Below, one piece after another: positions 5,081 to 26,412 of a DNA stretch of 64,000 nt. Made by a program: the position numbers and the translations under genes. The notes under the pieces were generated by a model. That model made no database searches. It was not told where the DNA came from and saw only the letters and a program-made list of their open reading frames with translations. Source of the stretch: an uncultured bacterium (lineage in GTDB: Bacteria > Omnitrophota > Omnitrophia > Omnitrophales > Abzuiibacteriaceae); NCBI GenBank assembly GCA_964387845.1, contig CAYLXA010000002.1, forward strand, positions 1 through 64,000. The letters are read 5' to 3'. The stretch's first letter is position 1. Each line of letters begins with the position of its first letter.

Positions 5081-5092
5081 CGAGAGAGTGTT

Positions 5093-5314: not shown

Positions 5315-5331
5315 AACTCTAAGGAGAGGGT

Positions 5332-6069
5332 ATGTTTATTATTCAATTTATATTACTTCAAGTAATTGTTTTCTCCGGCGTCATTTTTTTCTTAAAAAAA
5401 ATACTCTACGGTGATACGCAAAGCGCCATCAACCGCCTCAACCGAGAATACCAAGATTTGTTGAACAAACAGAAACAGCTTGCTCAGAAAGTTGAGGAGG
5501 CGGAAAAAGAGCTTGTTCTAAAAAAGGAAGAAGCGGTTCAGGTTAAAAATAAGATGACCACGCAGGCAATGGACGAAATTCGCCAACAAAAGGACGAAAC
5601 GGTCATGAAAGCCAAGCAGGAGGCTGAAGAGATTGTTGCAAAGGCAAAAGCAGCTGCGGACAAAAATTATCGGGAGATCGAGAAGCAAGTGAGGGCAAAG
5701 TTGACAGAAAACGCCGCAGACCTCCTGAGGCAATCGATTAGTGAGCGGATCATTAAAGCGACTCACACCGAATTAATTGCCGAATTTTTAGAAAGAGCAA
5801 AAAGCTTTGATCTGACCAATGTTGACCCAAGCATTCAGAAGTTAATGGTGAAAACAGCTCTTCCGCTTACAGCATCGGAAAAAGAAAAAATTAAAATGTT
5901 TGTGAATGAGCGATTGGGCCGGACGCTTGAGCTGGAAGAGGTTGAAGATAAAACACTTATTTCAGGCGTTGTGCTGATGTTTGGAACGCTGTTGATGGAC
6001 GGCAGTATGGTTAATTATATTAAGGAAGCAGAGCTGAAAATTAAACAAACCATCGAAAAGGAAACCTAA
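5332..6069 (+). CDS. ATPase b subunit fused to a delta (OSCP) C-terminal domain
   Basis: N-terminal TM helix plus long charged coiled coil (b-like). C-terminus LGRTLELEEVEDKTLISGVVLMFGTLLMDGSMVNYI resembles the delta-subunit C-terminal domain. Confidence 0.65.
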   Translation: MFIIQFILLQVIVFSGVIFFLKKILYGDTQSAINRLNREYQDLLNKQKQLAQKVEEAEKELVLKKEEAVQVKNKMTTQAMDEIRQQKDETVMKAKQEAEEIVAKAKAAADKNYREIEKQVRAKLTENAADLLRQSISERIIKATHTELIAEFLERAKSFDLTNVDPSIQKLMVKTALPLTASEKEKIKMFVNERLGRTLELEEVEDKTLISGVVLMFGTLLMDGSMVNYIKEAELKIKQTIEKET

Positions 6070-6075
6070 TCCGGC

Positions 6076-6975
6076 ATGGGTAAGGTAGCTCAGATCAAGG
6101 GCGATTTGGATGACGTCGAGGCGCTTCTTGAAATTATTACCATTTTAAAAGACGTTTCCACAAACCGGTTCTTTGCTTTTGCCCAGCAGAAAGACGATTT
6201 GAGCAAATTTCTGGAAATCTTTCTTATTTTCTTTGACATGGTTGCCGGCATTGAAACAACATGCCCGTTGGTACGGAATGAAAATCCGGCAACCGATATC
6301 GTGCTCATCACATCGGAGTCCAGTTTCATGTCACAAATGAATACCAGGGCCTGTAGTGCGGCGCTTGTAGAATTTCAAAAAAATCCAAGCGCAAGAATTG
6401 TTTGTGTGGGGCGCCGGGGTATCGACCGCTGCAAGCAGCTTGGAATGAAGGTGGATAAGTCTTATGAGAACGTGGATTTGGTCGGCCGTTATGAAACTTC
6501 GCTGATGATCCGGGATTATCTCATTGACCGCATCATGACCGGTACGACAGGAAAAGTGATGTGTATTTATATTTGGCCGAAAAGTTTCAGCGTTTTGAAA
6601 CCGCGCGTTGTGCGCTTGCTGCCCGCCACCGAGCTATTGAGCGATCAGGAAGAACAGGCGGCTGGAGAAGGGGAGCAAAAAGATGATAAACCAGTTCAGC
6701 AGGTGAGGGATGTGATTCAGGAGTCGGGAATTGACGGGATCATGAAAGTACTTGCCGACATCTGGGTTTCTTCGCGTCTTTTTGAAATTCTTTCGGATAC
6801 AAAATTGGCTGAAGCAGCTGCGCAATCGCAGCAGTTAGAATCGGCCATGGAAGGTCTTTCAAAAGAAAAGTCAGGATTGATGCTTGGTTTTAAAAAAGCG
6901 GTGCGCGGCGATTTGAATGCTGCGATGCGCGAAGTGTTTACGTCACAAAAAGCCATCAAATCAAGACGGGGATAA
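6076..6975 (+). CDS. atpG: F-type ATPase gamma subunit
   Basis: The C-terminal helix motif AEAAAQSQQLESAMEGLSKEKSGLMLGFKKAVRGDLNAAMREVFTSQ matches the gamma C-terminus. The central ITSE..FMSQMN region is also gamma-like. Confidence 0.7.
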   Translation: MGKVAQIKGDLDDVEALLEIITILKDVSTNRFFAFAQQKDDLSKFLEIFLIFFDMVAGIETTCPLVRNENPATDIVLITSESSFMSQMNTRACSAALVEFQKNPSARIVCVGRRGIDRCKQLGMKVDKSYENVDLVGRYETSLMIRDYLIDRIMTGTTGKVMCIYIWPKSFSVLKPRVVRLLPATELLSDQEEQAAGEGEQKDDKPVQQVRDVIQESGIDGIMKVLADIWVSSRLFEILSDTKLAEAAAQSQQLESAMEGLSKEKSGLMLGFKKAVRGDLNAAMREVFTSQKAIKSRRG

Positions 6976-6979
6976 ATAA

Positions 6980-8386
<1,407 letters not shown>

Positions 8387-8392
8387 GGATAC

Positions 8393-10579
8393 GTGGTGAT
8401 AATTAGTCCTGCAGAAAAAACATCATTTGATGCGCTGGTTAGTTCGGGCATCCTTCAGAAAGACGATCTAGAGAAGGTTGTCAAAGCCGCTGCGCACGAA
8501 AAGCTCTCGCTGTCTGAATTTGTCGTACGCTCCGGCCGGATCAAAGATGCCGAGCTTCCGAATGTTTATGCAAAGTACTTCAAGGTTCCTGCCATTCAAC
8601 TTAAATCGATCGAAACTGACCGTGCCGTTATCGAAAAGGTTCCCGTTAAGTTCTCCAATTATTATAAATTTTTCCCCGTTAAACTGCACAATCACAGGCT
8701 GACAATCGCCATTTCACAACCGATGGATGTCGGTACGCTGGATGAAATCCGGTTAGGGCTTGGGTTTGACATTGATTTCGTTTTCGCTTCAGGGCGTGAT
8801 ATCGAAGAAATGAGCAAGCGTTATTATGGATTAGGTGCCGAGACAGTTGACCGCATCATGATGCAAAAAAGCGGACAAGATTTACCCGCTTCCGCGCACA
8901 TGAGTGCCGCCGTTCAGGTTGAGGACATAGAAAAACTTGCAGAGACCGCATCAGTTGTGCAGCTCGTGAATCAAATTTTCCTGGATGCTTACCGAAAAGG
9001 CGCCAGCGATATTCATATCGAGCCTTACCGAGGCCGTGTTCGGCTGCGGTATAGGATTGACGGTGTTCTGCAGGAAGCGCGTGTGCCGCCCGATTTGATG
9101 CGGTTTTTTATGCCGATTTTGTCACGCATTAAAATCATGGCAAATCTTAATATCGTGGAACGCCGGTTGCCGCAAGATGGCAAGGCGCGCGTCAAGACAC
9201 AGGATCAAACCTTAGATTTACGGATTTCATCGATCCCCACACCGCTTGGCGAGAGCATGGTGGTCCGGATCCTTCCCAGTAAAATGATTCTGAGCTTGGA
9301 AGAACTTGGTTTTGAGGCGGATCATTTGAAGATATTTAAGGACCTGCTCAAGCGGCCCCATGGCGTGATTTTCCTGACAGGCCCGACCGGCAGCGGTAAA
9401 AGCACGACCTTATACTCTGGGTTCAGCTCAATGGATACGATGGTGAAGAAAGTTGTAACCATCGAAGACCCGATTGAGTATGAAATCGACGGAATCACAC
9501 AAGTGCAGGTTATGCCCGAGATCGGCCTCACATTTGCACGCGGTCTCCGGAGCATGCTTCGGCACGATCCGGACGTGATGATGGTCGGCGAAGTCCGGGA
9601 TTTGGAAACGGCCGATATTGCCATTCGGGCGGCTTTGACGGGGCATTTGATTTTATCGACATTGCACACCAACGACGCCGCGAGCGGAATTACGCGCCTG
9701 ATCGACATCGGAGCGCAGCCTTATCTGGTCGCTTCGAGCGTTATCGCTTTTATCGCGCAGCGGCTGGTTAGGGTGATTTGCCCCAACTGCAAGCAAGAGA
9801 ACAAATCTCTTTCGGAAGCAACCCTCAATCTCATCAAATCCGACCTAAATTTGACAGCGGACGATTCAGTTAAAACTTATATCGGAACCGGTTGTGATGA
9901 GTGTAATCAAACAGGATTTCGCGGGCGTGTCGCTGTGCACGAGATCATTCTGATCAATGAAGAAATCCGAAAATTGATCTACACAAAAGCATCGTCAGAG
10001 GAAATTAAGTTGAGGGCTCGCAGCCTCGGCATGAGGACGCTCAGGCAGGATGGATGGAAAAAGGTCTTGAGAGGCATTACGACTGCCAACGAAGTGATGG
10101 AAATTACGCCGGCCGATGAGATTGAAAACAGGGAATTGAAAGAGATGTTTCAAGAGGTTACGATTGCCCAGTCTCCGATCAAGCAGACCGATGAGTTTGT
10201 GGAGCGCAGGCGCTATCCCCGAGCGGTTGTTAAGTTTCCTTTGTCATTCCGCGTCATTGGCCAAGGATCTCCCGCTTCCAAAAGTGCATCGAGCACCGAA
10301 GAATGGGTGGAAGCCGAATCGGAGGATCTGAGTGCCAGCGGACTCATTTTTTCTAGCGCTCAAATCGCACAAATCGGCCAATTGCTCGAGTTTAAGCTAG
10401 AACTCCCCGATCGAAGTCAACCGGTCCAATGCATCGGACGCGTGCTCAGGGTTGAAGAGAGCGATCAAAATATATCCCGAAAGACAGTGGTGTCCTACCG
10501 TGTTTCAGTAACTTTTTTGTCGATTAATAGTGTCGACCGATCAAGAATTGAAGCTTTTTGCCAGGGCCGCGTGTCATGA
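8393..10579 (+). CDS. gspE: GspE/PilB-family secretion/pilus ATPase with a C-terminal PilZ domain
   Basis: Walker A GPTGSGKST. His box. Tetracysteine CPNC..CDEC. C-terminal extension with RRRYPR and DLSASG PilZ motifs. Confidence 0.85.
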   Translation: MVIISPAEKTSFDALVSSGILQKDDLEKVVKAAAHEKLSLSEFVVRSGRIKDAELPNVYAKYFKVPAIQLKSIETDRAVIEKVPVKFSNYYKFFPVKLHNHRLTIAISQPMDVGTLDEIRLGLGFDIDFVFASGRDIEEMSKRYYGLGAETVDRIMMQKSGQDLPASAHMSAAVQVEDIEKLAETASVVQLVNQIFLDAYRKGASDIHIEPYRGRVRLRYRIDGVLQEARVPPDLMRFFMPILSRIKIMANLNIVERRLPQDGKARVKTQDQTLDLRISSIPTPLGESMVVRILPSKMILSLEELGFEADHLKIFKDLLKRPHGVIFLTGPTGSGKSTTLYSGFSSMDTMVKKVVTIEDPIEYEIDGITQVQVMPEIGLTFARGLRSMLRHDPDVMMVGEVRDLETADIAIRAALTGHLILSTLHTNDAASGITRLIDIGAQPYLVASSVIAFIAQRLVRVICPNCKQENKSLSEATLNLIKSDLNLTADDSVKTYIGTGCDECNQTGFRGRVAVHEIILINEEIRKLIYTKASSEEIKLRARSLGMRTLRQDGWKKVLRGITTANEVMEITPADEIENRELKEMFQEVTIAQSPIKQTDEFVERRRYPRAVVKFPLSFRVIGQGSPASKSASSTEEWVEAESEDLSASGLIFSSAQIAQIGQLLEFKLELPDRSQPVQCIGRVLRVEESDQNISRKTVVSYRVSVTFLSINSVDRSRIEAFCQGRVS

Positions 10580-11793
10580 AAAAATTTGTTTATCAAGCCA
10601 AGAAAAAACCCGGTGAATTTGTGAATGGATCATTGATGGCCGATTCGCAAGATGAAGCTATCGACAAGATAAGTGCGCAGGGCTTATTTCCAATTGAAGT
10701 CAAAGAAGAGGTGGCTCAAGAAGTTCCCAGAACAGCGGTGCCGCAAAACTTTTCAAAACGCATACCCTCACGAGACTTGATCATGTTTTACCGGCAAATC
10801 GCCAAAATGACGCAATCCGGCATTCCAATTTTAAGAGCTATTGGTTTTATTTACGACCAATCTACGAAATCGCCCCTGAGACCCGTTTTAGAAAATGTGC
10901 AGACCATGATCGGCCAGGGCGAGAACTTTTCGGGCGCTCTTAGCCGGTACCCGCGCGTATTTTCATCCTTTGATTTAGCTATGATCGCAGCCGGAGAGAG
11001 TGTTGGGAAACTGAATGAATCGCTTTTGCAGCTTGCAAAACACAGGGCCGACCAGCAGGCGCTTTTGTCGCGCGTCCGCGGTGCGTTGGCTTATCCGGCA
11101 TTTATTCTCGTGATGGGTGTTTTGACCGTAAGCTTCATGTTGACGCATGTGATTCCGCAATTTTCACGCTTTTTCGCCGATCTCGGCCAAAATTTACCCA
11201 TTCCGACACAAATTTTGATCGCAATTAGCCAGTGGCTTCAGGCAAACTGGGTTGGGATTGTTGCTATATTGGTTTTTCTATTTTTTTTATTACAGCGGAT
11301 TTTAAAATCTGAGAGCGAAAGGCGGATTTTTGATCGCCTGGTCCTTAAGGTTCCGCAAGTTGGGAATTTGATCTTAAAAGTGGAGATTGCACGATTTAGC
11401 CGATCTCTTGAAATTTTAATCAAGAATAAGATGCAGGCGCTTCAAGCGGTCTCAATCGTGATTCCGATTGTTCAAAATCGCTCCATCCGAGATGAGTTGG
11501 AAAAAAGTCGCCAGCAAATGGAGCAGGGCGGTTATTTGAGCGAAGGCCTAGGGCAATCTGAGGTTTTTCCGAAATTTGTCCATTATCTCATCAGAACGGG
11601 CGAAGAGTCGGGGCGTTTGGATGAAGCGCTTGCCGAAATTGCGGATTGGTACGAATCGGAAATTGATGAAACCGTCAAAGTGACAACCAGTTTAATGGAG
11701 CCCCTTGTTATTTTAGTCGTCGGGTTTATTCTAGGTCTGATCGTTATAGCGGTTTTGATGCCGGTATTTAGCATGAACGCCGCGATTCAATAG
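10576..11793 (+). CDS. gspF: GspF/PilC inner-membrane platform protein
   Basis: GspF-type duplicated cytoplasmic domains and three TM segments. ATG overlaps the gspE stop (ATGA). Confidence 0.85.
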   Translation: MKKFVYQAKKKPGEFVNGSLMADSQDEAIDKISAQGLFPIEVKEEVAQEVPRTAVPQNFSKRIPSRDLIMFYRQIAKMTQSGIPILRAIGFIYDQSTKSPLRPVLENVQTMIGQGENFSGALSRYPRVFSSFDLAMIAAGESVGKLNESLLQLAKHRADQQALLSRVRGALAYPAFILVMGVLTVSFMLTHVIPQFSRFFADLGQNLPIPTQILIAISQWLQANWVGIVAILVFLFFLLQRILKSESERRIFDRLVLKVPQVGNLILKVEIARFSRSLEILIKNKMQALQAVSIVIPIVQNRSIRDELEKSRQQMEQGGYLSEGLGQSEVFPKFVHYLIRTGEESGRLDEALAEIADWYESEIDETVKVTTSLMEPLVILVVGFILGLIVIAVLMPVFSMNAAIQ

Positions 11794-11810
11794 CTAACAG
11801 AGGAATTAAA

Positions 11811-12251
11811 ATGAAACATTATTTTCATCATCAAAAAATGTACCAGCGAGGGTTTTCACTTATCGAAATTCTGCTGGTTGTTGTTATCATCGGAACGCTT
11901 GCCGGCATGATGATTCCGCGGATTACGGGGCGTTCCGAACAGGCCCGCATGGCAGCTGCCAAAGCAGATGTTAACGTTAACATTCCAACGGCGCTAAAAC
12001 TTTACGAACTCGACAATGGGTTTTTTCCGACAACTGATCAGGGTTTGACCGCGCTGTTAAAAAGACCCGATACTCAACCGACACCACAAAACTGGAACGG
12101 GCCGTATCTAGAAAAAATGCCCATCGATCCTTGGGGCAGGCCGTATCATTACAGTTCGCCTGGGGTCAATCGGCCGCACGATTATGACTTATTTTCTTCC
12201 GGCAAAAACGCCGGAAAGGAGAAGGTGGATGATGATATCAAGAACTGGTAG
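11811..12251 (+). CDS. gspG: Major pseudopilin GspG
   Basis: Prepilin N-terminus QRGFSLIEILLVVVIIG. GspG hallmark DPWGRPYHY. Confidence 0.85.
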   Translation: MKHYFHHQKMYQRGFSLIEILLVVVIIGTLAGMMIPRITGRSEQARMAAAKADVNVNIPTALKLYELDNGFFPTTDQGLTALLKRPDTQPTPQNWNGPYLEKMPIDPWGRPYHYSSPGVNRPHDYDLFSSGKNAGKEKVDDDIKNW

Positions 12252-12660
12252 ACGGCGGGCTAGCGCACCTTGTTTAAAATCGCAAACCGGGGTAACTCTG
12301 GTTGAAACCTTGGCAGCCGTTGTCATTTTATCAATCGGGATTGTCGCGGTGTATCAACCGCTTCTACGGTCATTGACGGTGCTGCATGAAATGGATGCCC
12401 GGCTGGAAGCGGACCGGTTGGCATCAGATGAGCTTTGGTTGTTAAAAATGAACCAAACTCGTCTCCAGGCCCTCTCAAAGGCTTCCGAGCAAAGTCAGGC
12501 TGTTGGTGCCGAGCGTGCTTATGCGTACGCAATTGAATCAAAGCCCCTCACAGAAGATAAGGTTTTAAACATGGTTCGTTTAAGGATGGAGTGGAATATC
12601 TCAGGCCGTTTAAAAGGAATTACGCAAACCAGTTATGTTGAAATTCCAAACGCGAATTAA
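12229..12660 (+). CDS. Minor pseudopilin (GspH/I-like)
   Basis: Prepilin-type N-terminus GVTLVETLAAVVILSIG. About 143 aa. The ORF-track start at 12184 overlaps gspG, so the ATG at 12229 is preferred. Confidence 0.65.
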   Translation: MMISRTGRRRASAPCLKSQTGVTLVETLAAVVILSIGIVAVYQPLLRSLTVLHEMDARLEADRLASDELWLLKMNQTRLQALSKASEQSQAVGAERAYAYAIESKPLTEDKVLNMVRLRMEWNISGRLKGITQTSYVEIPNAN

Positions 12661-13258
12661 ACAAACCGCCGGTTTTACCCTAGTGGAAACCATGCTGGCG
12701 GTTCTTATTATTTCAATCGTGAGCGCAGCGCTCTATGGGATTTTTTCCAATGGTGTCCAGGTCTGGCATCGCGCTAGTACTCCGAAGCTAAACTACGAAA
12801 TCCATTTCTTTTTTGAGCAATTAGAAGCGGATCTCCGGAATCTTTTGCCGAACGATCAAACACCTTTCAAGGGACAAAACTATTCTTTTGAATTCTCCTC
12901 ACTGAGCCCGAGCGTAAAAATTGTTAATGCCGCAGAATCGCGCGGCGTGCCGGCCCGCCTTAAGTATGATTTTCACAGTTCAAAACACTCCGTCAGCCGA
13001 ATCGTGAGAGATTATTACAACATTCTGAATAAACAAACCAAGCCGTCGTCAGAGCGAAATTTGCTTCAGGGGATCAGCCGGTGTACGTTTCAATATTTTA
13101 AGAAAGTAAATGAATTACAGGCGCCTTCTTGGAATAATAGCTGGTCAGACCTCTGCGTGCCGAATGCGGTCAAAGCAAGTGTCGAATATATGGAAGCGGG
13201 GCGCCTGCGTGTATTGACCAAAGTAATTCCTATTCCGGCGGGCGGGTGTTTTGTATGA
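12635..13258 (+). CDS. Minor pseudopilin (GspJ-like)
   Basis: Prepilin-type N-terminus AGFTLVETMLAVLIISIV. 207 aa. Confidence 0.65.
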   Translation: MLKFQTRIKQTAGFTLVETMLAVLIISIVSAALYGIFSNGVQVWHRASTPKLNYEIHFFFEQLEADLRNLLPNDQTPFKGQNYSFEFSSLSPSVKIVNAAESRGVPARLKYDFHSSKHSVSRIVRDYYNILNKQTKPSSERNLLQGISRCTFQYFKKVNELQAPSWNNSWSDLCVPNAVKASVEYMEAGRLRVLTKVIPIPAGGCFV

Positions 13259-14760
13259 AACTCCCCGGAACGCCTGCAAGTGGTTTGGGGCTGAAAAAGG
13301 CATCTAAGTCCAGCGAGACCATTTTAATCGAGCTGAGCGACAGCCGTATCAAAATCGTATCTCTCAGCGAATCACAGGGCAATTTAACCGTAGAAAGCGT
13401 TGCGCAAAAATCGGTTGTCGGGCTGTCAGACCAAGATGTTGCGGCATTTATCGCGCAATATTACAAGAAGCAAAATATTAAATCGAAGCAACTGGTTTGC
13501 GCGATACCTTCCGGTTATTTGATTTCCAAAAATGTTGATATGCCTTCCAGTGATCCGGAGGAAATAAAAAAAATAATTGATTTGCAGGCGGGGCGTTATA
13601 CGCCGTATTCGCGCGAGGAAATCGTCATTGATTATCTCTCAAGCAGCAAGCCCGGTCAGCACTACACCAATGTTTTATTAATTATTGTCCATCGTAAAAA
13701 TATTGATCGGCTACTCAAAATCAGCGAACTTGCCGGTCTTGAAGTATCCAGGATTGTCTGCGCATCAGAAGCAATGGCGCTCATTTGCGACCAAGTCCGT
13801 CAGCGCATCCTGCAGAAGAACTCAGCCGTCACAGGGATCCATGTTGCTGAGGAACAGATCGATTTAATATTTTCTGACCAGGGCCAACTTGTTTTTGCGA
13901 GAAGTATTCCGGTCGGATTTCGTCACTTTTCAGCCGGAAAGGAATCGGCAGATGCCGATTTTGCAAAGGAGCTCGACCAATCTTTTTCGGCTTATCAAAG
14001 CCAGGGCATCGGCCAGCCCGTTGAATTGGTTGCTTTTTCTGGCCTTGCCAAACAGTTGGCATCGCTGGAGGGTACGATCAAAAGCTCCGTTCCTTATGCG
14101 TCTGCCAGTTCTCTTGTGTTTGAAATGATACCGGAGGAAAAAGAGTTTCACTTATCAGATGAAGCTTTGGCAGCTTGCAAAAATGATCCGGAGGTATCAT
14201 TTTTTTCGGTTATTGCTTCGGTTTGGATGCTTAAATCACTTAAGCTTGACTTCGTCCCGAAGGAAGTAAAGCTAAGAAAAAAAGTTCAAGAGGGGAGCCG
14301 AGATATTATTGCTTTAGGCGTTCTTTTGATGACCCTTATTTTGTTGATCTGTGTTTTCCTGGGCGTGCAGATTTATCTGAAAAAGGACATCATCAAGCGG
14401 CTTGAATCTATTAATGTGAAGACGTCTGACCAAGCCAAGACCCTCGAGCAGGCTTCCACCAAGAGCCGTGTTCTGCGTAATTTGCTGGATAGCCGCGGAA
14501 AGGGCCTTTATGTTTTTGAGAAAATATCAACGGTGATCGGTGAGGATATTTATTTGGCTAGTTTTAGTTTTGATAAAGACGACATTATTAAATTGGCGGG
14601 CACCGCAGATTCCATGTCGCGTGTTTTTGCATTTGTTACCGAATTGGAAGAATCTCAATATTTTAAGGATGTTAAAACCAATTCAACAAAATCCAGGCGC
14701 CAAGGCCAGCGAGAAGTGGCTGATTTTGAAATCGAGTGTACGTTTTCCGAAGGTATTTAA
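13255..14760 (+). CDS. PilM-PilN fusion / GspL-like assembly protein (cytoplasmic actin-like domain, one TM, periplasmic domain)
   Basis: N-terminal PilM-like region, then TM IIALGVLLMTLILLICVFLGV, then a PilN-like C-terminal domain. ATGA overlap with the upstream gene. Confidence 0.6.
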   Translation: MKLPGTPASGLGLKKASKSSETILIELSDSRIKIVSLSESQGNLTVESVAQKSVVGLSDQDVAAFIAQYYKKQNIKSKQLVCAIPSGYLISKNVDMPSSDPEEIKKIIDLQAGRYTPYSREEIVIDYLSSSKPGQHYTNVLLIIVHRKNIDRLLKISELAGLEVSRIVCASEAMALICDQVRQRILQKNSAVTGIHVAEEQIDLIFSDQGQLVFARSIPVGFRHFSAGKESADADFAKELDQSFSAYQSQGIGQPVELVAFSGLAKQLASLEGTIKSSVPYASASSLVFEMIPEEKEFHLSDEALAACKNDPEVSFFSVIASVWMLKSLKLDFVPKEVKLRKKVQEGSRDIIALGVLLMTLILLICVFLGVQIYLKKDIIKRLESINVKTSDQAKTLEQASTKSRVLRNLLDSRGKGLYVFEKISTVIGEDIYLASFSFDKDDIIKLAGTADSMSRVFAFVTELEESQYFKDVKTNSTKSRRQGQREVADFEIECTFSEGI

Positions 14761-14775
14761 CAAAAAGAAAAACAT

Positions 14776-15411
14776 ATGATTGATGCATTCTATGCAAAGT
14801 TAAAAGGAAGGGAACGAGTACTTTTCGTGGCGGCGGTAAGCTGTGTTGTTATGGTTTTGATGGACCGGCTTGTCATTGGCCCCATTTTGTCACAGATGAA
14901 GCTGATGGATGCCGAGATTTCCGCAAAAACACAGACAGTCCGCCGGAATATGCGAATCCTTTCATTTCGCGATAGTATTTTAAATGATTATTCGCGTTAC
15001 AGCGCCTACTTTGACTCGGTAAATCGAAAACAGGAAGAGATTATTTCCAGACTTCTCAAGGAAATCGAATCAATCGCTGCTCAGAAATCGATCACAATTG
15101 TTAATATTAAGCCCGGTGATGTGCAGGAAAATCCGGTCTTTCATGAGTATAAAACCACCTTGGAATTTTCAGGTAAGCTGTTGGACATACTCGGTTTTAT
15201 GAGCTTGTTGGAAGAATCTGACTATTTGTTCAGAATCACTGAATTTTCGATGACGCCGAAATCAAAGAATTCAGATGTTATGAAGTGCGTCCTCAATGTG
15301 ACCAGAATATTGATGACAGCCGAAAATGTGCCTTCACCGGCGGTAAGCGTGGCGCAGCCGTCTAATGCAGCCGCGCCCGGCGCTTTACCGTTTGGAGGGG
15401 AACCGGCGTGA
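14776..15411 (+). CDS. PilO/GspM-like bitopic assembly protein
   Basis: Single N-terminal TM, a coiled coil and a ferredoxin-like C-terminal region. Position follows the GspL-like gene. Confidence 0.5.
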   Translation: MIDAFYAKLKGRERVLFVAAVSCVVMVLMDRLVIGPILSQMKLMDAEISAKTQTVRRNMRILSFRDSILNDYSRYSAYFDSVNRKQEEIISRLLKEIESIAAQKSITIVNIKPGDVQENPVFHEYKTTLEFSGKLLDILGFMSLLEESDYLFRITEFSMTPKSKNSDVMKCVLNVTRILMTAENVPSPAVSVAQPSNAAAPGALPFGGEPA

Positions 15412-16115
15412 AAATCTTATCTTTTTTTTGCGCTTGGTTGCTTGCCTGGAATGCGGTCTCATGGTGTGAAACCGGCCAAAAACAGAGGGCGCAAGAATTG
15501 TACGGAGAGAGCATCGAACTTCTAAAACAGGAAAAGGTAAGTTTGGCGATTGATTTGTTGTTGGAATCGGTTGAGTTAGATCCTGGCTTTGCACCGTCCT
15601 GGAATGCGCTGGGTTTGGCGTATATGGGCAAGGACGGCTATGCGGCAGATGCCATCGACGCATTTACGCAGTCGCTTGAGCTGAGCCCTGCTCAACCGGA
15701 TGTCTATGCGAACTTAGGCATTGTGCATAGCAGCGACACAAAGGATTATGCTTTGGCAGAAGAATATTTGACTAAAGCGCTTGCGATGGATCCGGAAAAC
15801 CTGCGCGCCAACTTCGGAATGGGCTGGGTCAATTTATGGCACAAACAGGACGGTACAGGGGCGGTTAAATCCTTCAAAAAAGTGCTTAAAAAAGAACCTG
15901 AAAACTTTATGGCGCATTATGGCGTCGGTATGGCTTATTTGGCACAGGACAATCGGGCAATGGCGCTCAAATCAATTTCAATGCTGCGGAAGTTGCGCAA
16001 GAATGATTTGGCAATTCAGCTTGAGTCTCTGATTCAACCTCGCGAGGAAGCCGCAGGGCCTGACGCTTCATTTGGAGCTGATCAATCAAAGGATTTTAAC
16101 TTAGGAAGCTTTTGA
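15408..16115 (+). CDS. TPR-repeat exported protein (PilF/PilW-like pilus-biogenesis TPR protein)
   Basis: Signal peptide plus repeated W-LG-Y-A-P TPR-like units. GTG start overlaps the upstream stop. Confidence 0.6.
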   Translation: MKILSFFCAWLLAWNAVSWCETGQKQRAQELYGESIELLKQEKVSLAIDLLLESVELDPGFAPSWNALGLAYMGKDGYAADAIDAFTQSLELSPAQPDVYANLGIVHSSDTKDYALAEEYLTKALAMDPENLRANFGMGWVNLWHKQDGTGAVKSFKKVLKKEPENFMAHYGVGMAYLAQDNRAMALKSISMLRKLRKNDLAIQLESLIQPREEAAGPDASFGADQSKDFNLGSF

Positions 16116-16120
16116 TCCTG

Positions 16121-16468
16121 TTATTTTGAATCAATCGCTTTCTGGCACTGATACTCCAAAATACCCACGGTTTGCGCAAGCGCTTCGATGCGGGAATTTT
16201 GCTCATTGATATAAATGGTCAGGAATAGGGTTTGCAGCAACAGGAAAGCCAGCAAGCAAAAAAAAGCAAAGTTGCTTGGTAGTGTAAAACCCATCCAGCT
16301 TGAAATTTGAAAAAGCGCCTGGTCAACAATGGAGAAAAAGAGGGCAATAACTGACGTTCCAAGCCACAACACAGAAAATTTAAATGTCATTTTTTGCCGC
16401 CGGATTAAATTAATGACGACCAGCATAATCACTACGGAAACAAAAATTGCCACGGTTCGTGCTTGCAT
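16121..16468 (-). CDS. DUF2304-like small membrane protein (glycosyltransferase-associated)
   Basis: 115 aa with three TM helices. Sits immediately beside a Dpm1-like GT2, as is usual for this family. Confidence 0.5.
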   Translation of the reverse strand: MQARTVAIFVSVVIMLVVINLIRRQKMTFKFSVLWLGTSVIALFFSIVDQALFQISSWMGFTLPSNFAFFCLLAFLLLQTLFLTIYINEQNSRIEALAQTVGILEYQCQKAIDSK

Positions 16469-16480
16469 GAGATATGCTCC

Positions 16481-17188
16481 TTATTTTTTTTCTTTTAAAA
16501 GATCCACCAAAATTGCAAATGTTACTTTTATCATGTAATACAGAGTGGCAAAATAGCGGATTGAAGATACACCGCTTTTTCGTTCGCGCATGTTAACAGG
16601 GACTTCCCCGATACGCGCAGAAAGCCGGTTGGCAATCTTGATTGCTTCCGGCTCAGGGAAATCAATCGGGTAGTAATCTGCAAAATAGGGAATTAGTTTT
16701 TTGCCCGTTGCGCGGAAACCGGATGTGGGGTCGGTTAAATGAATTCCGGTTAAAATACTCAAAAGGTTGGCAAAAAAACGGATCCCAATCCGGCGCGTGA
16801 ACGTAGATTTAAAGTGGGATGACGTGGTTAAGAACCGGCTCCCAATGCAAAGATCCAGCTTGTCGGACAGGACCGGTTCTAGGATTGTGTGCAGAAATGC
16901 CGGATCATGCTGAGCATCGCCGTCAAGCTGAATAACCGCGTCGTATTTTTCTTTTAAGGCAACTTTGTACCCGGTCTGGACGGCGCCGCCAATACCCAGA
17001 TTAAAAGGGTGGGTAACGATTGATGCGCCTCCAGCAACCGCTTCATCGCGAGTTGTGTCTTTAGAGCCGTCATTAATAACAAGCGGCGTATAGGTTGGAT
17101 ATTCACGCTTGATGGTTTGCACTAACTCACGGATTGAGCCGCTTTCGTTATAGGCGGGTATAACAATTAAAACTTTTGGTAGCGACAT
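16481..17188 (-). CDS. GT2 polyprenyl-phosphate sugar synthase (Dpm1-like)
   Basis: VLIVIPAYNE. INDGSKD. LDGDAQHD, a GT-A DxD region. Confidence 0.8.
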   Translation of the reverse strand: MSLPKVLIVIPAYNESGSIRELVQTIKREYPTYTPLVINDGSKDTTRDEAVAGGASIVTHPFNLGIGGAVQTGYKVALKEKYDAVIQLDGDAQHDPAFLHTILEPVLSDKLDLCIGSRFLTTSSHFKSTFTRRIGIRFFANLLSILTGIHLTDPTSGFRATGKKLIPYFADYYPIDFPEPEAIKIANRLSARIGEVPVNMRERKSGVSSIRYFATLYYMIKVTFAILVDLLKEKK

Positions 17189-17253
17189 GCGATTATCTTA
17201 TCGTTGCGCAAGGCCAAGCTCAAGTCAATTCTATCAACGGAAAATTGAACCAC

Positions 17254-19800
17254 ATGCTAGCTGACAAACGATCGATAGGATATTTCATATCCTTTATTTT
17301 GGTTGCCGTATTTTCTCTTCATTTACGGACTGCATGGATCCAAAATCCCGGTCAGGAATCCCGGACAAATGCCAAACAAATGGCAAGCATGCTCGTTCTG
17401 GCGTCTGTACGTGAACAAGTTAAGGCTTCTGTGATTTCCGAAAATCCGGGCCGTGACGCACGGGAAGTTGACCGAATAGTATCGGAGCAGGTTGAAAAAG
17501 TCATTCAGTCAGATAACCGTCAGTTCGAAGAAGCCATTCGAAATGCCGAGACTGAAATTGCGGCGCGGATACAGCAAACCCAAAAAAACCGCCAGCAGCC
17601 CTTTCTCTTGGAGGCAGATCCGTATTATTACTATTACGCTGTCCAGAAAATCGAGGAGGAGGGCTCGCTATTTTTAAACCGAAAAGACGGCCTTTTTTTT
17701 AACCCGCTGAGACTTGCGCCTTCCGGTTCGTGGGATTGGCTGACGCTTCATCCTTATGTTGGATATTTTCTTCACCATTTTTTTAAAATATGGAAGCCGG
17801 ATCAGGTCATGATGGAATCGCTCGGATGGGTCCCGATTTTGTTGTCCATGATCGTTGCGATATTATTTTTTCAGATTTGCCGAATCATGAATTTTGAAGC
17901 GCTCCCTGCATTGCTGGGCGGTTTTGTTTTAATGACGGCGCCCATTTTTATCCAGCGCAGCGCCTTTGGATGGTTTGATACGGATCCTTACAACTATTTA
18001 TTTCCGCTGGCCGTGCTGATGACGCTCATGCTTTGCATCCAAACTAGGTTTCGAGGCGGCTTTGCAGGAGCTCTTGGCGGTTTTTTGACGGGTTTATATG
18101 CATTATTCTGGGCGGGTTGGCCGTTTCTATTGGTTTTGGTTGTGATTGCTAGCGGTTCCATTGTTTTTTTGGAGTGTTGGAGAGTGAAGAAGTTAAATTG
18201 GGCCCCATGTTTTGAATATCTGATTGCGTACCTGTTTTCGTCCATTTTATTTTCATTTGTCTTTATTACGCCAAAGAGCACTATCGATGTTATCTACAAT
18301 GGATTGGTTTTTATTCCAAAATTCTCAGTCTCAACATTCGAAAGCTGGCCAAGCGCATTTCTTACCGTCGGTGAAGCAAAATCAATTTCATTGCAGAAGT
18401 TAATTTTTTTAACAGGGAATTATGTTATTTTTGGGATAGCACTGATAGGATTTATTGCCTCGGGTATTTATTGGTATAGACGGAAAAAAGACAACTCCAG
18501 ATTTTACGAATGGCTTGTAATCGCGTTATTTGCGCTTCCTTTATTTGTTTTATCCATTAAAACCGAGCGTTTTTCTGTCTTGTTTGCTCTCCCGCTTGCA
18601 CTGCTTGTTGCTTTTGGTGCTGAGTGGTTGATGCGCATATCAGCCGTGCTTTTTGGCCGCGCTAAGGATGAGAAGTCTAAAAACTTTGCACCCAAAGCCG
18701 CTGCCCTTGTACTCCTTCTTGCTGTCTTGCCGATGGGGTTTGTGCAAGCCAACATTGTCTCGCGGCAAATATCTCCCATTATGGATCTTGTTTGGTATCA
18801 AGCACTTACAGAAATTAGGGACCAAACACCAGAGAATGCAATTGTTCATAGTTGGTGGCCGCCCGGTTATTTTATTATTTCGGTCGCGCGCCGGAGGGCA
18901 TTGGTGGACGGCGGAACGCAGGAACGCCCGCAATCTTACTGGATCGCTAAGGCATTTTTGTCGTCTGATGAAAGCCAGTCGGCAGGTATTTTGCGCATGT
19001 TGTCCACAAGCGGTAATGAGGCAATGGATTTTTTGCAGGGTAAATCGATGAGCTTGTCAGACGCATCCAATCTAATTCTAGACATCGTCAAGCGCCCACG
19101 ATCGCAAGCATTCGATGTGCTGCCAAACCAATTTACAAAACAGGAAAAATTGAAGCTGCTTGACCTGACGCACGGCGAGAACCCTGCGCCGAGCTATGTA
19201 TTGTTGTATAAAGATCTGATTGATCAAAATTTGGCTGTGACGCTGATGTCCGAATGGGACTTCGAAAAGGCAAAAGCGCTGGAGACTGCAAAACATACCG
19301 GCAAAGAAAAAAAGACCGCGCAATCAAATGCCGAAAACTATATTCAAAACATGTTGCAAGTAACCGGCGGCGTTTTGAAATACTGGCCGCAATCTGAAAT
19401 GAGGCGGCAAGATGGAAAAGTTATCTATTTTCAGAACGGAGTCAGTATTGATCTTGAAAGCGGAGACGCAAAAATTCAATCGCCCGGTGCGGGGCCTAAC
19501 GGAAATTTATTGAGTTTGTTTTATCTTGATGAAGATGCGCTCATCGAGAAAGAAAGCAGCGAGCCCTCGGTTGACGCCTCCGTTTTACTGATCCGTCGAA
19601 ATGATGTGTATGCTTGTGTGGTGGCGGACCGAAAGCTGATTCGTTCCATGATGTTCCGGTGGTATTATTTAGACGGCAAAGGACTCTCGCTATTTAACCT
19701 ATTTACAAAGCAGGACAGTGAAGACGGTAGTAATCGCGTAAGTGTATTCCAGGTGAATTTTGAGTCTGTGCTCGCAGCTGAAACCGAGGTGAAAGCATGA
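17254..19800 (+). CDS. STT3/AglB/PglB-family oligosaccharyltransferase-like membrane protein (variant WWPPG motif)
   Basis: EL1 motif ADPYYYYYA. Later TDPYNY. TVGE (TIXE/SVSE-like) motif. SWWPPGYF after about 13 TM helices. Large C-terminal soluble domain. The ORF-track start at 17176 overlaps the GT2, so the ATG at 17254 is preferred. Confidence 0.65.
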   Translation: MLADKRSIGYFISFILVAVFSLHLRTAWIQNPGQESRTNAKQMASMLVLASVREQVKASVISENPGRDAREVDRIVSEQVEKVIQSDNRQFEEAIRNAETEIAARIQQTQKNRQQPFLLEADPYYYYYAVQKIEEEGSLFLNRKDGLFFNPLRLAPSGSWDWLTLHPYVGYFLHHFFKIWKPDQVMMESLGWVPILLSMIVAILFFQICRIMNFEALPALLGGFVLMTAPIFIQRSAFGWFDTDPYNYLFPLAVLMTLMLCIQTRFRGGFAGALGGFLTGLYALFWAGWPFLLVLVVIASGSIVFLECWRVKKLNWAPCFEYLIAYLFSSILFSFVFITPKSTIDVIYNGLVFIPKFSVSTFESWPSAFLTVGEAKSISLQKLIFLTGNYVIFGIALIGFIASGIYWYRRKKDNSRFYEWLVIALFALPLFVLSIKTERFSVLFALPLALLVAFGAEWLMRISAVLFGRAKDEKSKNFAPKAAALVLLLAVLPMGFVQANIVSRQISPIMDLVWYQALTEIRDQTPENAIVHSWWPPGYFIISVARRRALVDGGTQERPQSYWIAKAFLSSDESQSAGILRMLSTSGNEAMDFLQGKSMSLSDASNLILDIVKRPRSQAFDVLPNQFTKQEKLKLLDLTHGENPAPSYVLLYKDLIDQNLAVTLMSEWDFEKAKALETAKHTGKEKKTAQSNAENYIQNMLQVTGGVLKYWPQSEMRRQDGKVIYFQNGVSIDLESGDAKIQSPGAGPNGNLLSLFYLDEDALIEKESSEPSVDASVLLIRRNDVYACVVADRKLIRSMMFRWYYLDGKGLSLFNLFTKQDSEDGSNRVSVFQVNFESVLAAETEVKA

Positions 19801-20123
19801 GGCAAGCAGGTTTAAAAATATATACGGTTTTTTTGGCGGCTTTTCTCGTTGCACAATCGGGAATTTTGCTAGCCGAAGATCAAATGGCTCAAGATAGCGG
19901 TATCCGAAAATATGGGGTTGTTCACAATATTGCCGATGACCGCAAAGTTGAAAAGGTGGGCGGTATTTACGAGCCTGAGGGATTGGATAAGTATTTGCAA
20001 AGGCGGTTAGACGATGTGACTGCCCGCTTGGATGAATTTTCAGAAAAGTTAAACAAGATTGACCAAAAACTAGAATCCTTGAGTTTGCAGTCGCGAACAG
20101 CGTCCGACGGCGATCATTCATGA
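19797..20123 (+). CDS. Small exported coiled-coil protein
   Basis: Signal peptide followed by a coiled coil. Both start and stop are coupled to neighbours by overlap. Confidence 0.4.
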   Translation: MRQAGLKIYTVFLAAFLVAQSGILLAEDQMAQDSGIRKYGVVHNIADDRKVEKVGGIYEPEGLDKYLQRRLDDVTARLDEFSEKLNKIDQKLESLSLQSRTASDGDHS

Positions 20124-21139
20124 ATCAAGCCCAGTTAAGCGGAAAAAGGGGTAGTATTTTCGTGCTTTGCATGTGGGTTTTGCTTTTACTGAGCATTTTT
20201 TCAATCTCAGTCAGTTATTCAGTTCGCCAAAGGATTAAGGTCGTGGAGCGGCTTGAGACGCGTCAACACTTAAGACGCATTGCCGAGTCAGGTATTCAAA
20301 AGGCAATTTACATTCTGAAATTAGACGACAACGGATATGACGGTTGGTCCGAAGGGTGGTACCAAAATGAAGATGAATTTAAAGACATTGCAATCAACGG
20401 CGGCCGGTTTTCGATTTTTCAAAAATCGTCAGGAGTTATCCGCTACGGAATCACCGATGAGGAGTCGAAAATCAATATCAACTTGGTTGGTTCTCCCGTT
20501 GTTTTTCGGCGTTTGTTTCATGACGGCCTGGGATTAGACGAAACAATATCGAATCAGCTGGCAGAATCCATTCTAGACTGGCGGGACGAAGATGACAATC
20601 CGCGCGGAGCCGGAGCGGAAAGCGCATATTATCAAACGCTAAATCCGCCGTATCGCGCCATGAATTCGGATTTTGCCTCGCTTGACGAACTTCTCTTCAT
20701 TAAAGGGGTCGATCAAGGCGTTTTTAGTCTAATCGCTCCTTATTTGTCTGTTGACAGCACAGGAAAAATCAATTTGAATACGGCGAGCACACCAGTTTTG
20801 CGCGCGATGGGTTTTAGCGAGTCTTTGGCAGGGAAGCTGGTAATGTTCAGATCCGGGCTGGATCAGATTCTTGGAACCAAAGACGATAATGCATTGCAAG
20901 ATTCGCAAGACATTGTCGCAGCGATCGATCAATTCGCATCGTTGACCGGTGATGAGAAAAACAGTCTGAAAGATTTTATAGAATCCGGGCTTTTTACGAT
21001 CAAATCATCATATTTTCAGATTCAAGCGAACGCGCGGCTGGGCAACCGCGGGTCTGAGTTATCGGTAGTCAGCGTGGCTGAAAAGAATGATTCGACGATC
21101 AATATCATAGCCTGGCGTGAAAGTTTTTATGTTGAATAA
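20120..21139 (+). CDS. gspK: Minor pseudopilin GspK
   Basis: Hydrophobic N-terminus GSIFVLCMWVLLLLSIF. GspK-type helix-hairpin-helix motifs KININLV and KINLNTAS. Confidence 0.7.
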   Translation: MNQAQLSGKRGSIFVLCMWVLLLLSIFSISVSYSVRQRIKVVERLETRQHLRRIAESGIQKAIYILKLDDNGYDGWSEGWYQNEDEFKDIAINGGRFSIFQKSSGVIRYGITDEESKININLVGSPVVFRRLFHDGLGLDETISNQLAESILDWRDEDDNPRGAGAESAYYQTLNPPYRAMNSDFASLDELLFIKGVDQGVFSLIAPYLSVDSTGKINLNTASTPVLRAMGFSESLAGKLVMFRSGLDQILGTKDDNALQDSQDIVAAIDQFASLTGDEKNSLKDFIESGLFTIKSSYFQIQANARLGNRGSELSVVSVAEKNDSTINIIAWRESFYVE

Positions 21140-22304
21140 GATTAAAAAATTTTGTAGAACAAATCAACTAGCGATTGCGATACTTTCAGCACTGCTGGTC
21201 TTTTCATTTTTTGCTTCAACAGGAGCAGCCCAGCAAGAGATTGAAATTATCGAGGAGTTAAAGCTGTTTTCGCGCGCGCTCGGCGCAATTTTAGAGGGGT
21301 ATGTCGAGCCTCTGGATGGCCGCAAGATGTTTTATGAGGCTGTAAAGGGTATGATGGGCGCTCTAGACCCATACTCCCAGTTCTTTGATATGGAAAAATA
21401 TGAGCTGCTTAAAATTGAAATGAAGGGCGAATATTCAGGGATTGGCGCCAGGATCGGAATTGTTGATGACATTCCTGTTATCGAGGATATTCAAGCGTCC
21501 AGCGCAGCAGAAAAAGCAGGGCTGCAAATCAAAGATATGATTTTGCAGGCGAATCACGATTGGGTGGTTTCAAAAACCGCACCCCAAGTTTCAGCGCTCC
21601 TACGAGGCGAGGCGGATACGCCGCTTAATTTAACCATCTGGCGCGAATCGACCCAAAAACTTTTTGAAGTTGAAATGAAGCGGGAGAAAATTGAGCTCAA
21701 ATCAGTAAATGATATTCGGATTGTCGGAAAAGCAGTCGGTTATATTCGCATTGATGAGTTTTCGGAAAATACCATAGAGCAATTCGACGCTGCTATTAAA
21801 AACTTGAAAGATAGAGGGATGAAGGCCCTGATTATTGATTTGCGAGGCAATGATGGAGGCTTAATGCCAAAAGCCGTGGAGCTTGCCGAAAGATTTTTAC
21901 CGGAAGGGGCCAAAATCATATCTGTTAAAAGCCGCATCGAGGTCCAAGCTAAGGAATATTTATCATCGGGTTCTAAAACCGAATCTAATTATCCGCTTGT
22001 CGTTTTAGTTAACCAAGCTTCGGCAAGTGCATCCGAGATTTTTTCTGCAGCCATTCAAGATAACAAACGTGGTACTATTATAGGCATGAAAACATTTGGA
22101 AAAGCATCTGTGCAGTCAGTGGTTCCGCTGGATGAAACAACTGCGGTTAAATTGACGACAGCAAGATACGTCAGTCCAGGAGGGCGGGTGATCGATGGTG
22201 TTGGAATTACGCCTGACCAGATCGTGGAAAACGGACCTTCGAGCGAAGCCGGTTCTGATTCACAAGTCCGTACGGCATTAAATTTGTTGAAGGAATATCT
22301 TTAA
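21117..22304 (+). CDS. ctpA: C-terminal processing peptidase (S41, CtpA/Prc) with a PDZ domain
   Basis: PDZ region GIGARIGIVDD. S41 catalytic region LVNQASASASEIFSAAIQDNKRGTIIGMKTFGKASVQ. An alternative ATG at 21129 is possible. Confidence 0.8.
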   Translation: MKVFMLNKIKKFCRTNQLAIAILSALLVFSFFASTGAAQQEIEIIEELKLFSRALGAILEGYVEPLDGRKMFYEAVKGMMGALDPYSQFFDMEKYELLKIEMKGEYSGIGARIGIVDDIPVIEDIQASSAAEKAGLQIKDMILQANHDWVVSKTAPQVSALLRGEADTPLNLTIWRESTQKLFEVEMKREKIELKSVNDIRIVGKAVGYIRIDEFSENTIEQFDAAIKNLKDRGMKALIIDLRGNDGGLMPKAVELAERFLPEGAKIISVKSRIEVQAKEYLSSGSKTESNYPLVVLVNQASASASEIFSAAIQDNKRGTIIGMKTFGKASVQSVVPLDETTAVKLTTARYVSPGGRVIDGVGITPDQIVENGPSSEAGSDSQVRTALNLLKEYL

Positions 22305-24718: not shown

Positions 24719-24739
24719 ATGTATTTAAGTCGCACGTTG

Positions 24740-26404: not shown

Positions 26405-26412
26405 AGTAGAAA

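Follow-up and report, generated by a model that had tools for sequence, protein, structure and literature searches.

The filament locus and its STT3-like gene

The window analyzed here, meaning the whole stretch of 64,000 nucleotides (positions 1 to 64,000 of the forward strand of contig CAYLXA010000002.1, assembly GCA_964387845.1), comes from an uncultured bacterium of the Omnitrophota. It carries a type IV filament operon, and adjoining that operon is a gene whose 848-amino-acid product resembles the STT3, PglB and AglB oligosaccharyltransferases (OSTs), with WWPPG at the position of their WWDYG motif. The open reading frame (ORF) at 17176-19800 (+) opens at a TTG; starting from the ATG at 17254, it encodes 848 residues and ends at 19800. 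The same protein was called independently in public assemblies, with the same neighbors, and public records list it as an "STT3 domain-containing protein" or under the standard OST name. An earlier note on this DNA had drawn attention to D-P-Y-Y, TVGE and WWPPGY motifs and to a large C-terminal soluble domain in this protein, all of which we located. The features of the gene, all on the plus strand, are as follows.

17254..19800 (+): STT3-family (GT66-like) GT-C glycosyltransferase, 848 residues, 13 predicted transmembrane (TM) helices (Pfam, AlphaFold)
17617..17619 (+): codon of D122, in EADPYYY (residues 120-126), equivalent to PglB D56 and AfAglB D47 (alignment)
17956..17985 (+): R235 through D242-T-D244 (WFDTDPY), equivalent to PglB R147/D154/D156, putative metal site (alignment)
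18364..18375 (+): TVGE (371-374, with E374), equivalent to TIXE/SVSE of external loop 5 (alignment)
18568..18570 (+): R439, equivalent to PglB R375 and AfAglB R426, putative contact to the phosphate of the lipid-linked donor (alignment)
18853..18867 (+): WWPPG (in WWPPGY, 534-539) in place of WWDYG; codons tgg tgg ccg ccc ggt

The protein matched the Pfam STT3 family (PF02516) with an E value of 2.1e-23 (83.9 bits, cut-off 24.5) and the STT3-PglB_core family (PF21436) with 28 bits against a cut-off of 23. In a profile alignment to solved chains, WWPPG fell on the SWWDYGY of STT3A and AglB, and the putative catalytic residues D122, D242, D244, E374 and R439 paired with D47, D161, H163, E360 and R426, respectively, of Archaeoglobus fulgidus AglB-L (AfAglB; PDB 3waj/7e9s). 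D122 also aligned with D49 of human STT3A, and the seven-residue spacing from R235 to D242 is that from R147 to D154 in PglB. Among 43 relatives with 27-52% identity to the window protein, D122, R235, D242, D244, E374, R439 and D552 were invariant (43 of 43), as was G373. Because the catalytic residues are unchanged over this range of identities, we take the enzyme to be active. The roles assigned to the corresponding residues are those of the PglB and AglB active sites (PMC7226087).

An AlphaFold model built from the 43 family members, with a predicted local distance difference test score (pLDDT) of 90.4 and a predicted template-modeling score (pTM) of 0.87, showed a helix pattern that we read as 13 TM helices followed by a soluble domain. 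This C-terminal domain, of ~310 residues, begins after the WWPPG motif, and a further periplasmic helical insertion of ~85 residues was predicted between TM1 and the catalytic Asp. In a Foldseek search of the model, Campylobacter lari PglB ranked first (E = 7e-18), followed by AfAglB and eukaryotic STT3, while other GT-C families scored more weakly (DPY19, 2e-6; ArnT, 1e-4; PMT, above 4e-3). The model thus combines a GT-C fold with a periplasmic mixed alpha/beta domain and lies nearer to OSTs than to other GT-C families. The STT3 assignment proposed earlier therefore held in both the PF02516 search and the structure comparison, and neither ArnT nor PMT, the competing families that the earlier note had named, gave the best match. 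By sequence and predicted fold, the window protein is a genuine STT3/PglB/AglB-family enzyme.

The aspartate of WWDYG is replaced across the family

Across the 43 relatives, the five motif positions were W (43/43), W (43/43), P (38/43, with S in 3, A in 1 and T in 1), P (42/43) and G (43/43). An exhaustive profile search for relatives returned 1,229 cluster representatives at E <= 1e-30, and 201 sequences were fetched for a motif count. WW[P/S/C/A/T/N]PG was present in 187 of these, most often as WWPPG (152), followed by WWSPG (22), WWCPG (6) and WWAPG (4). WWD occurred in just 1 of the 201, a distant relative with WWDYG that belongs to a sister family. Because the Asp of WWD is replaced family-wide, altered acceptor recognition, which had been suggested earlier from the Asp-to-Pro change in the window protein, is a fair inference, and from the sequence pattern we infer that loss of this Asp argues for a different acceptor rule.

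The sister family (P0071 and P0202-P0232 in our set; one member is labeled Candidatus Binatia) has WWDYG in 30 of 35 members and WWPYG in 3. It shares with the window family the helical insertion after TM1, an "AERRV.ADGG" segment, a C-terminal "F.DG.G" motif and the invariant residues D122, R235, D242, D244, E374, R439, W534, W535 and G538. The positions that separate the two families surround the active site, clustering in loop 1 (119-123), loop 2 (239-250) and loop 5 (367-369) and at residues 536, 537 and 540. A DK/MxxI pattern was not recognizable in the aligned region after the motif in either family. The genomic settings also differ: sister-family loci (L081, L083 and L085 among them) have WecA-like GT4, MurG-like GT28 and GT1/GT4 genes and an ABC transporter nearby, and no filament genes. 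Judged from gene content, this is a pgl-like set of the kind that would build a pyrophosphate-linked oligosaccharide.

Three further observations concern these sequences. The three WWPYG members of the sister family may represent steps on the way to losing the Asp. The sister family also has several conserved Cys positions with no counterpart in the Omnitrophota family. Finally, one contig of the survey described below (L030) encodes, at 17070-19607 (+), a second, divergent family member that is ~30% identical and has SWFDPGYF and SYDNDP motifs; this paralogue retains Asp at motif position 3 and is flanked by two ORFs that, read by eye, are of GT1/GT4 type.

The STT3-like gene is tied to the type IV filament operon

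We surveyed one genome per species, which gave 194 relatives, and analyzed the best 80 loci with profile searches of the neighboring genes. The hosts of these 80 were Omnitrophota metagenome-assembled genomes (MAGs) or MAGs with automatic Planctomycetes labels, with one labeled Candidatus Elulimicrobium. Filament genes were linked to the STT3-like gene in 65 of the 80 loci, 27 of which have the embedded arrangement of the window and 38 a convergent one, in which the STT3-like gene lies tail-to-tail with a tetratricopeptide repeat (TPR) gene that closes the filament operon. Filament genes were absent from 15 loci, in about eight of which the flank was long enough to count. Each of the two arrangements, embedded and convergent, matches one of the two main clades in a neighbor-joining tree.

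In the convergent loci, the median stop-to-stop gap between the STT3-like and TPR genes was 9 bp, and the gene on the opposite side came from 14 different families in 28 loci. That neighbor varies but the TPR/filament side does not, and it is therefore the filament side that has been retained. The TPR gene was the neighbor of the STT3-like gene in all 38 convergent loci and in 24 of the 27 embedded ones, and a 108-residue secreted protein (p108) was present in 22 of the 27 embedded loci and in none of the convergent ones. The STT3-like gene is thus genuinely tied to the type IV filament operon, and its orthologues share the pilin-locus link on which the interpretation in the earlier note depended.

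The neighboring genes of the window locus are listed here in order.

3590..8386 (+): genes for the F-type ATPase alpha, b/delta, gamma and beta subunits, immediately upstream of the filament operon (Pfam; synteny conserved)
8393..15411 (+): type IV filament operon, resembling type II secretion systems (T2SS) and type IVa pili (T4aP) (Pfam), comprising the next seven entries
8393-10579 (+): GspE with N-terminal MshEN and C-terminal PilZ domains on one polypeptide (Pfam)
10558-11793 (+): GspF (Pfam)
11811-12251 (+): GspG major pseudopilin (Pfam; best PDB match 2kep, "General secretion pathway protein G", 3.6e-27)
12184-12660 (+): N-methyl pseudopilin (Pfam)
12635-13258 (+): GspJ-like pseudopilin (Pfam)
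13246-14760 (+): PilM-PilN fusion (Pfam)
14776-15411 (+): PilO (Pfam)
15408..16115 (+): TPR protein, N-terminal segment signal-like; its gene closes the filament operon (Pfam TPR)
16121..16468 (-): DUF2304 small membrane protein, GacJ/Rv3632-like (Pfam, 3.9e-21; 75.7 bits, cut-off 25.5)
16481..17188 (-): glycosyltransferase family 2 (GT2) polyprenyl-phosphate sugar synthase, GacI/PpgS/AglJ/DPMS-like, 235 residues (Pfam GT2)
19797..20123 (+): p108, 108 residues, secreted, no Pfam match (ORF)
20120..21139 (+): GspK-like minor pseudopilin (Pfam T2SSK_1st, 4.6e-21)
21117..22304 (+): S41 C-terminal processing protease, CtpA-like (Pfam Peptidase_S41 and PDZ)

These assignments bear out the gene context described in the earlier note, with a Dpm1-like GT2, a DUF2304 protein and pseudopilin and assembly genes adjoining the STT3-like gene. 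The core set of T2SS and type IV pili is present, namely the GspE/PilB ATPase, the GspF/PilC platform, N-methylated pilins and PilM/N/O, and GspG resembles GspG/EpsG chains in the PDB. MshEN and PilZ are cyclic di-GMP-binding modules. Neither a secretin (GspD/PilQ) nor a prepilin peptidase was found in the operon, the window ORFs scanned or the related loci; both may be encoded elsewhere in the genome. The GT2 gene is divergent from the STT3-like gene, their start codons lying 65 bp apart, and promoter and terminator scans at this junction gave counts at or below those of shuffled sequence. Downstream, the STT3-p108 and p108-GspK junctions are ATGA stop/start overlaps, so that p108 is translationally coupled to both neighbors, and a 23-nt overlap joins the GspK ORF to the S41 ORF. 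The p108 protein has a conserved motif, N.A.DR..E..GG.Y.PEG.DKY. The best PDB match of the S41 protease was 7rpq, "Probable carboxyl-terminal protease" (2.3e-61), which we take to be P. aeruginosa CtpA.

In a reverse search, we collected metagenome contigs found from the PilM-PilN protein, 47 of which had at least 3.5 kb downstream; the STT3-like gene was present in 23 and absent from 24. With one further locus of shorter flank, 24 STT3-positive loci could be compared with the 24 STT3-less ones. The TPR gene was found in 24 of 24 STT3-positive loci versus 2 of 24 STT3-less loci, the GT2/DUF2304 pair in 23 of 24 versus 0 of 24, and the S41 gene in 18 of 24 versus 0 of 24. The TPR, STT3-like, protease and donor genes are therefore gained and lost as a block, and because this block is present on a subset of operons only, the STT3-like module is an accessory block and not a core part of assembly. 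The 24 STT3-less operons (among L121-L167) close with PilO and a 160-185-residue ORF without a Pfam match, after which housekeeping genes begin. Replacement of the STT3-like gene by PilP/PilQ in these operons was ruled out, as CTP synthase, PNPase and DnaX follow the small ORF. Two contigs (L150 and L167) have two such filament operons in tandem.

In both clades the STT3-like gene has a periplasmic serine protease as its companion, but the two protease families involved are unrelated. The embedded clade and seven or eight convergent loci have an S41/CtpA-like enzyme, nine other convergent loci have a Trypsin_2 enzyme, and filament operons without the STT3-like gene lack such a protease. A serine protease gene lies upstream of the STT3-like gene in L035, L036, L039, L050, L057, L059, L060, L075 and L080. 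CtpA and Prc need TPR adaptor lipoproteins (LbcA and NlpI, respectively). We tried and rejected identification of the TPR protein as LbcA or NlpI; with matches to generic TPR profiles only, it is a possible adaptor of the protease.

Putative donor synthesis genes accompany one of the two clades

The earlier note had described the GT2 as a Dpm1-like polyprenyl-phosphate sugar synthase, and a GT2/DUF2304 pair of that type is indeed present; it occurs in 22 of the 27 embedded loci and thus in only one of the main clades. The best NCBIfam matches of the GT2 were PpgS (6e-26) and AglJ (1e-19), both below the equivalog cut-offs (91 bits against 370 for PpgS). Its closest solved relatives were P. furiosus DPMS (1.9e-11), then GtrB and ArnC, all of which are polyprenyl-phosphate glycosyltransferases. 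The DUF2304 proteins GacJ and Rv3632 bind and stimulate GacI and PpgS, respectively, which make GlcNAc-P- or GalNAc-P-polyprenol (bioRxiv 10.1101/180810). On the basis of the GT2 relatives and the DUF2304 family, the donor in the window clade is likely a monophosphate-linked single N-acetylhexosamine (HexNAc).

Pfam scans of the flanking genes returned no flippase-type family, although no search aimed at GtrA/Wzx-type flippases was made. An Arn-like reading of two loci in which a GT2 and a DegT aminotransferase gene follow the STT3-like gene (L033 and L076) was rejected, as this GT2 resembles PgaC, EpsD and PglI and not DPMS or ArnC.

Canonical sequons in the pseudopilins are neither enriched nor conserved

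The sequons pointed out earlier exist: E-W-N-I-S forms residues 136-140 of the pseudopilin encoded at 12184-12660, and the GspJ-like protein has NYS82 and NNS167. The major pseudopilin GspG of the window has zero N-x-S/T. Over ~40 orthologous loci, the ratio of observed to expected N-x-S/T was 0.52 in GspG, 0.62 in the minor pseudopilin, 1.29 in GspJ and 1.06 in GspK. In each of the four sequon columns of the window (EWNIS, NQT, NYS and NNS), a sequon was limited to one sequence, the window's own, out of 24 or 43. This census lends no support to N-glycosylation of the pseudopilins at such sites, and with chance-level frequency and no conservation, both the canonical and the extended sequons were discarded as pointers to targets.

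We also compared GspG from linked (n = 42) and unlinked (n = 20) operons over 131 columns. The top conservation gain was at N96, present in 40 of 42 linked versus 11 of 20 unlinked sequences (Fisher p = 3e-4, uncorrected for relatedness). N96 lies in a loop with the pattern K-P-[ST]-[ST]-x-P-x-P-x-N-W-N96-G-P-Y (loop sequence KPTTTPIPENWNGPYLEK; residues 84-99, RPDTQPTPQNWNGPY), the P-x-P segment of which is missing in unlinked pilins. However, the same P-x-P-x-N-W-N occurs in the GspG chain of PDB 2kep, presumably P. aeruginosa XcpT, and to our knowledge P. aeruginosa is not expected to carry such an enzyme. Because of this shared segment, N96 was downgraded as an acceptor and is kept only as a weak lead.

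Two other proteins of the locus stood out. In the periplasmic PilN part of the PilM-PilN fusion, Y436 was present in 94% of STT3-linked operons and in 0 of 26 unlinked ones, the largest difference seen in any operon protein. The sole locus protein with an excess of N-x-S/T was a lipoprotein-like ORF of 160 residues at 22341-22823 (+), which is kept downstream in the embedded clade (observed/expected 1.72, n = 18).

Other genes of the window

The arrangement of ATPase and filament genes is conserved in both clades of related loci and matches the "symbiotic" ATPase/T4aP loci reported for Omnitrophota. No gene for an F-type ATPase a or c subunit was found among the window ORFs scanned. An ORF at 2169-3593, without assignment, also lies upstream of the ATPase genes, and a 672-residue repetitive protein encoded at 75-2093 (+) gave sub-threshold matches to Lysostaphin_N-like repeats. 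Polysaccharide-type genes occupy 22845-32575 (-), 46035-47963 (+), 49777-53001 (+) and 55872-57812 (-); they include a GT2, a pyruvyl transferase, an FrhB-like protein and a 2OG-Fe oxygenase. The same regions encode two more GT-C proteins (PMT_2 type), a 1074-residue spermine-synthase-like protein with TPR repeats and three large ORFs without a Pfam match (482, 142 and 554 residues), the first two of which are syntenic in the embedded clade.

A probable accessory glycosyltransferase with a rebuilt acceptor pocket

Collectively, sequence, predicted structure and gene linkage point, with a probability that we put at roughly 0.5, to a catalytically active accessory glycosyltransferase of the filament system with non-canonical acceptor recognition, belonging to an Omnitrophota-wide subfamily that would have descended from a WWDYG-bearing bacterial lineage. 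Having lost its sequon-reading residue, the enzyme probably glycosylates something by a rule other than N-x-S/T. It would be a periplasm-facing, single-subunit enzyme in which the part of the pocket that reads the +2 Ser/Thr hydroxyl has been replaced (WWDYG to WW[P/S]PG), and it would form, with the TPR protein and the periplasmic serine protease, an accessory module of the type IV filament system. In such a model, the GT2/DUF2304 pair, by homology, would load a sugar, probably HexNAc, onto polyprenyl monophosphate at the cytoplasmic face, and a flippase would expose the loaded lipid to the periplasm. The enzyme would then bind this donor with R439 and with a divalent cation coordinated by D122, D242, D244 and E374; these residues and the fold are those described above, and the roles are carried over from PglB and AglB. 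Finally, the sugar would be moved to a periplasmic protein that belongs to the filament system or is exported by it, most likely to an Asn amide that lies outside N-x-S/T and that D122 and E374 activate. The observation made in the earlier note is thus confirmed, and its interpretation is partly supported.

Several findings weigh against this accessory-glycosyltransferase reading. About half of the related filament operons are without the module, which the filament can thus do without, and synteny of the kind described here is a sign of co-inheritance or co-regulation, not of a substrate relationship. The GT2/DUF2304 pair is absent from all 38 convergent loci, and in a small subclade its place is taken by genes for a chain-extending GT2 and an aminotransferase and by a Wzx-like gene; the donor genes are thus not conserved. 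N-x-S/T is neither enriched nor conserved in the pseudopilins, and the loop around GspG N96 is shared with 2kep. The characterized three-component systems with GT2/GacJ-type proteins decorate polysaccharides, not proteins. TPR and S41 pairs elsewhere (LbcA-CtpA and NlpI-Prc) degrade cell-wall hydrolases, and a function unrelated to pilins is therefore allowed.

The main rival, which we consider unlikely, holds that the acceptor is a surface polysaccharide, a lipid or peptidoglycan, so that the enzyme would be the GT-C arm of a three-component polyprenyl-phosphate-sugar system of the GacI/GacJ/GacL, GtrA/B/V or PpgS/Rv3632/Rv3779 kind and its adjacency to the filament genes would reflect envelope co-regulation. 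Such a role would suit the GT2/DUF2304 pair, whose type is characterized in polysaccharide decoration, as well as the polysaccharide genes downstream in the window (a GT2, a pyruvyl transferase and two PMT_2 GT-C genes); in addition, without the WWD Asp the enzyme lacks the signature feature of peptide sequon readers, and the locus pseudopilins offer no acceptor sequon. However, D122 and E374, which activate the Asn carboxamide in OSTs, and both Trp residues of the peptide motif are invariant, all characterized members of the fold family act on protein Asn, and the filament linkage outlasts rearrangement, whereas the donor genes do not. It is also improbable, in our view, that the protein is an ordinary PglB-like general N-oligosaccharyltransferase that still uses N-x-S/T, tolerates the motif change and lies in this neighborhood incidentally. 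Its catalytic machinery is intact, the two Trp that it retains account for two of the three groups donating hydrogen bonds to the +2 hydroxyl, and one subclade and the L030 paralogue lie among oligosaccharide-assembly genes. Yet the position-3 Asp is gone in essentially the whole family and the position-4 Pro is 98% conserved, which argues for selection for a different pocket and not for drift. The sister family, under similar constraints, retains WWDYG, N-x-S/T enrichment in the periplasmic proteins of the locus is only weak and limited to one lipoprotein-like ORF, and the synteny is not incidental.

The invariable presence of the TPR neighbor, the serine protease that accompanies the gene in both clades from different families (S41 and Trypsin_2), and the joint gain and loss of all three genes would also be consistent with an enzyme that targets envelope proteins at the filament base, rather than pilins, in partnership with the TPR protein and the protease (CtpA-like or trypsin-like); it might, for instance, glycosylate or mark enzymes of cell-wall remodeling or substrates of the protease. 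We regard this as distinctly unlikely: the TPR sequence gives no specific tie to LbcA or NlpI, and the block contains no candidate substrate except the 108-residue protein of one clade. A non-catalytic, structural or scaffolding part of the filament machine, as might be suggested by the ~85-residue periplasmic helical insertion before the catalytic Asp and by the tight packing of the gene in the operon, is highly improbable, as the catalytic residues are all invariant at 27-52% identity and the insertion is also present in the sister family, which has no filament genes nearby.

Comparison with known glycosylation systems

The window protein shares with archaeal AglB the five aligned catalytic positions given above. 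Euryarchaeal AglB uses monophosphate-linked donors started by the GT2 AglJ, which the GT2 of the window would parallel. The systems differ in that AglB has WWDYG and uses N-x-S/T, whereas the window family has WWPPG and pseudopilins without a conserved sequon, and in that the window protein is bacterial, with an extra helical insertion of ~85 residues after TM1. AglB glycosylates type IV pilins and archaellins (PMC5131992). The parallel to AglB and pilins drawn in the earlier note stays an analogy.

Like the window protein, Campylobacter PglB (PDB 5ogl/6gxc/3rce) is a single-subunit bacterial enzyme, and in both a DGG motif follows the WW motif. A PDB profile search with the window family gave no sequence-level match to PglB. 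PglB further differs in its D/E-x-N-x-S/T sequon, its WWDYG and MxxI motifs, its pyrophosphate-linked heptasaccharide donor and its pgl cluster, a context that the window gene does not have.

The short GT2 and its DUF2304 partner recall GacI/GacJ/GacL of Streptococcus pyogenes and PpgS/Rv3632/Rv3779 of Mycobacterium tuberculosis, in which HexNAc-P-polyprenol is made for a periplasm-facing GT-C enzyme. There, however, the GT-C partner comes from outside the STT3 family, and polysaccharides serve as acceptors. In being an accessory block, the window module also resembles the pilin glycosylation genes of Pseudomonas. The bacterial pilin glycosylation enzymes TfpW, TfpO/PilO and PglL are likewise encoded by accessory genes, variable between strains or lineages, beside pilin genes. 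TfpW is a membrane glycosyltransferase that modifies pilin in the periplasm with a lipid-linked sugar (bioRxiv 10.1101/2020.04.19.049825). These enzymes differ in being O-linking and in having Emb-like GT-C or Wzy_C domains, neither of which is present in the window protein; specifically, no Pfam match to the Wzy_C domain of the PglL/TfpO O-oligosaccharyltransferases was found in its 848 residues.

Implications for Omnitrophota and the STT3 family

Non-respiratory F-type ATPase clusters co-located with T4aP clusters have been reported from every class of Omnitrophota (Seymour et al. 2023; PMC10066038), and this ATPase/pilus locus was proposed there as the basis of host attachment in these uncultured, ultra-small bacteria. 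STT3 and glycosylation go unmentioned both in that paper and in a 2026 preprint on complete Omnitrophota genomes, and a literature search on Omnitrophota or Omnitrophica together with oligosaccharyltransferase or glycosylation returned no paper linking them. A more far-reaching proposal, tentative and in our judgment rather doubtful, is that the STT3-like enzyme is the dedicated glycosylation arm of the ATPase-linked filament thought to attach Omnitrophota to their hosts. It would then represent a large clade that does without N-x-S/T reading, a bacterial counterpart of AglB pilin glycosylation with a new acceptor rule and probably a single monophosphate-linked sugar.

Every characterized STT3/PglB/AglB enzyme reads N-x-S/T through WWD, and here a large natural clade, comprising hundreds of sequence clusters, keeps the catalytic site with the pocket rebuilt. 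The clade is a ready-made natural experiment on a change of acceptor specificity and might supply glyco-engineering with enzymes that follow a new site rule, and the hypothesis is open to heterologous expression without culturing of the organism. If the filament or its cargo is glycosylated, this would bear on host and phage recognition, or evasion, by Omnitrophota cells.

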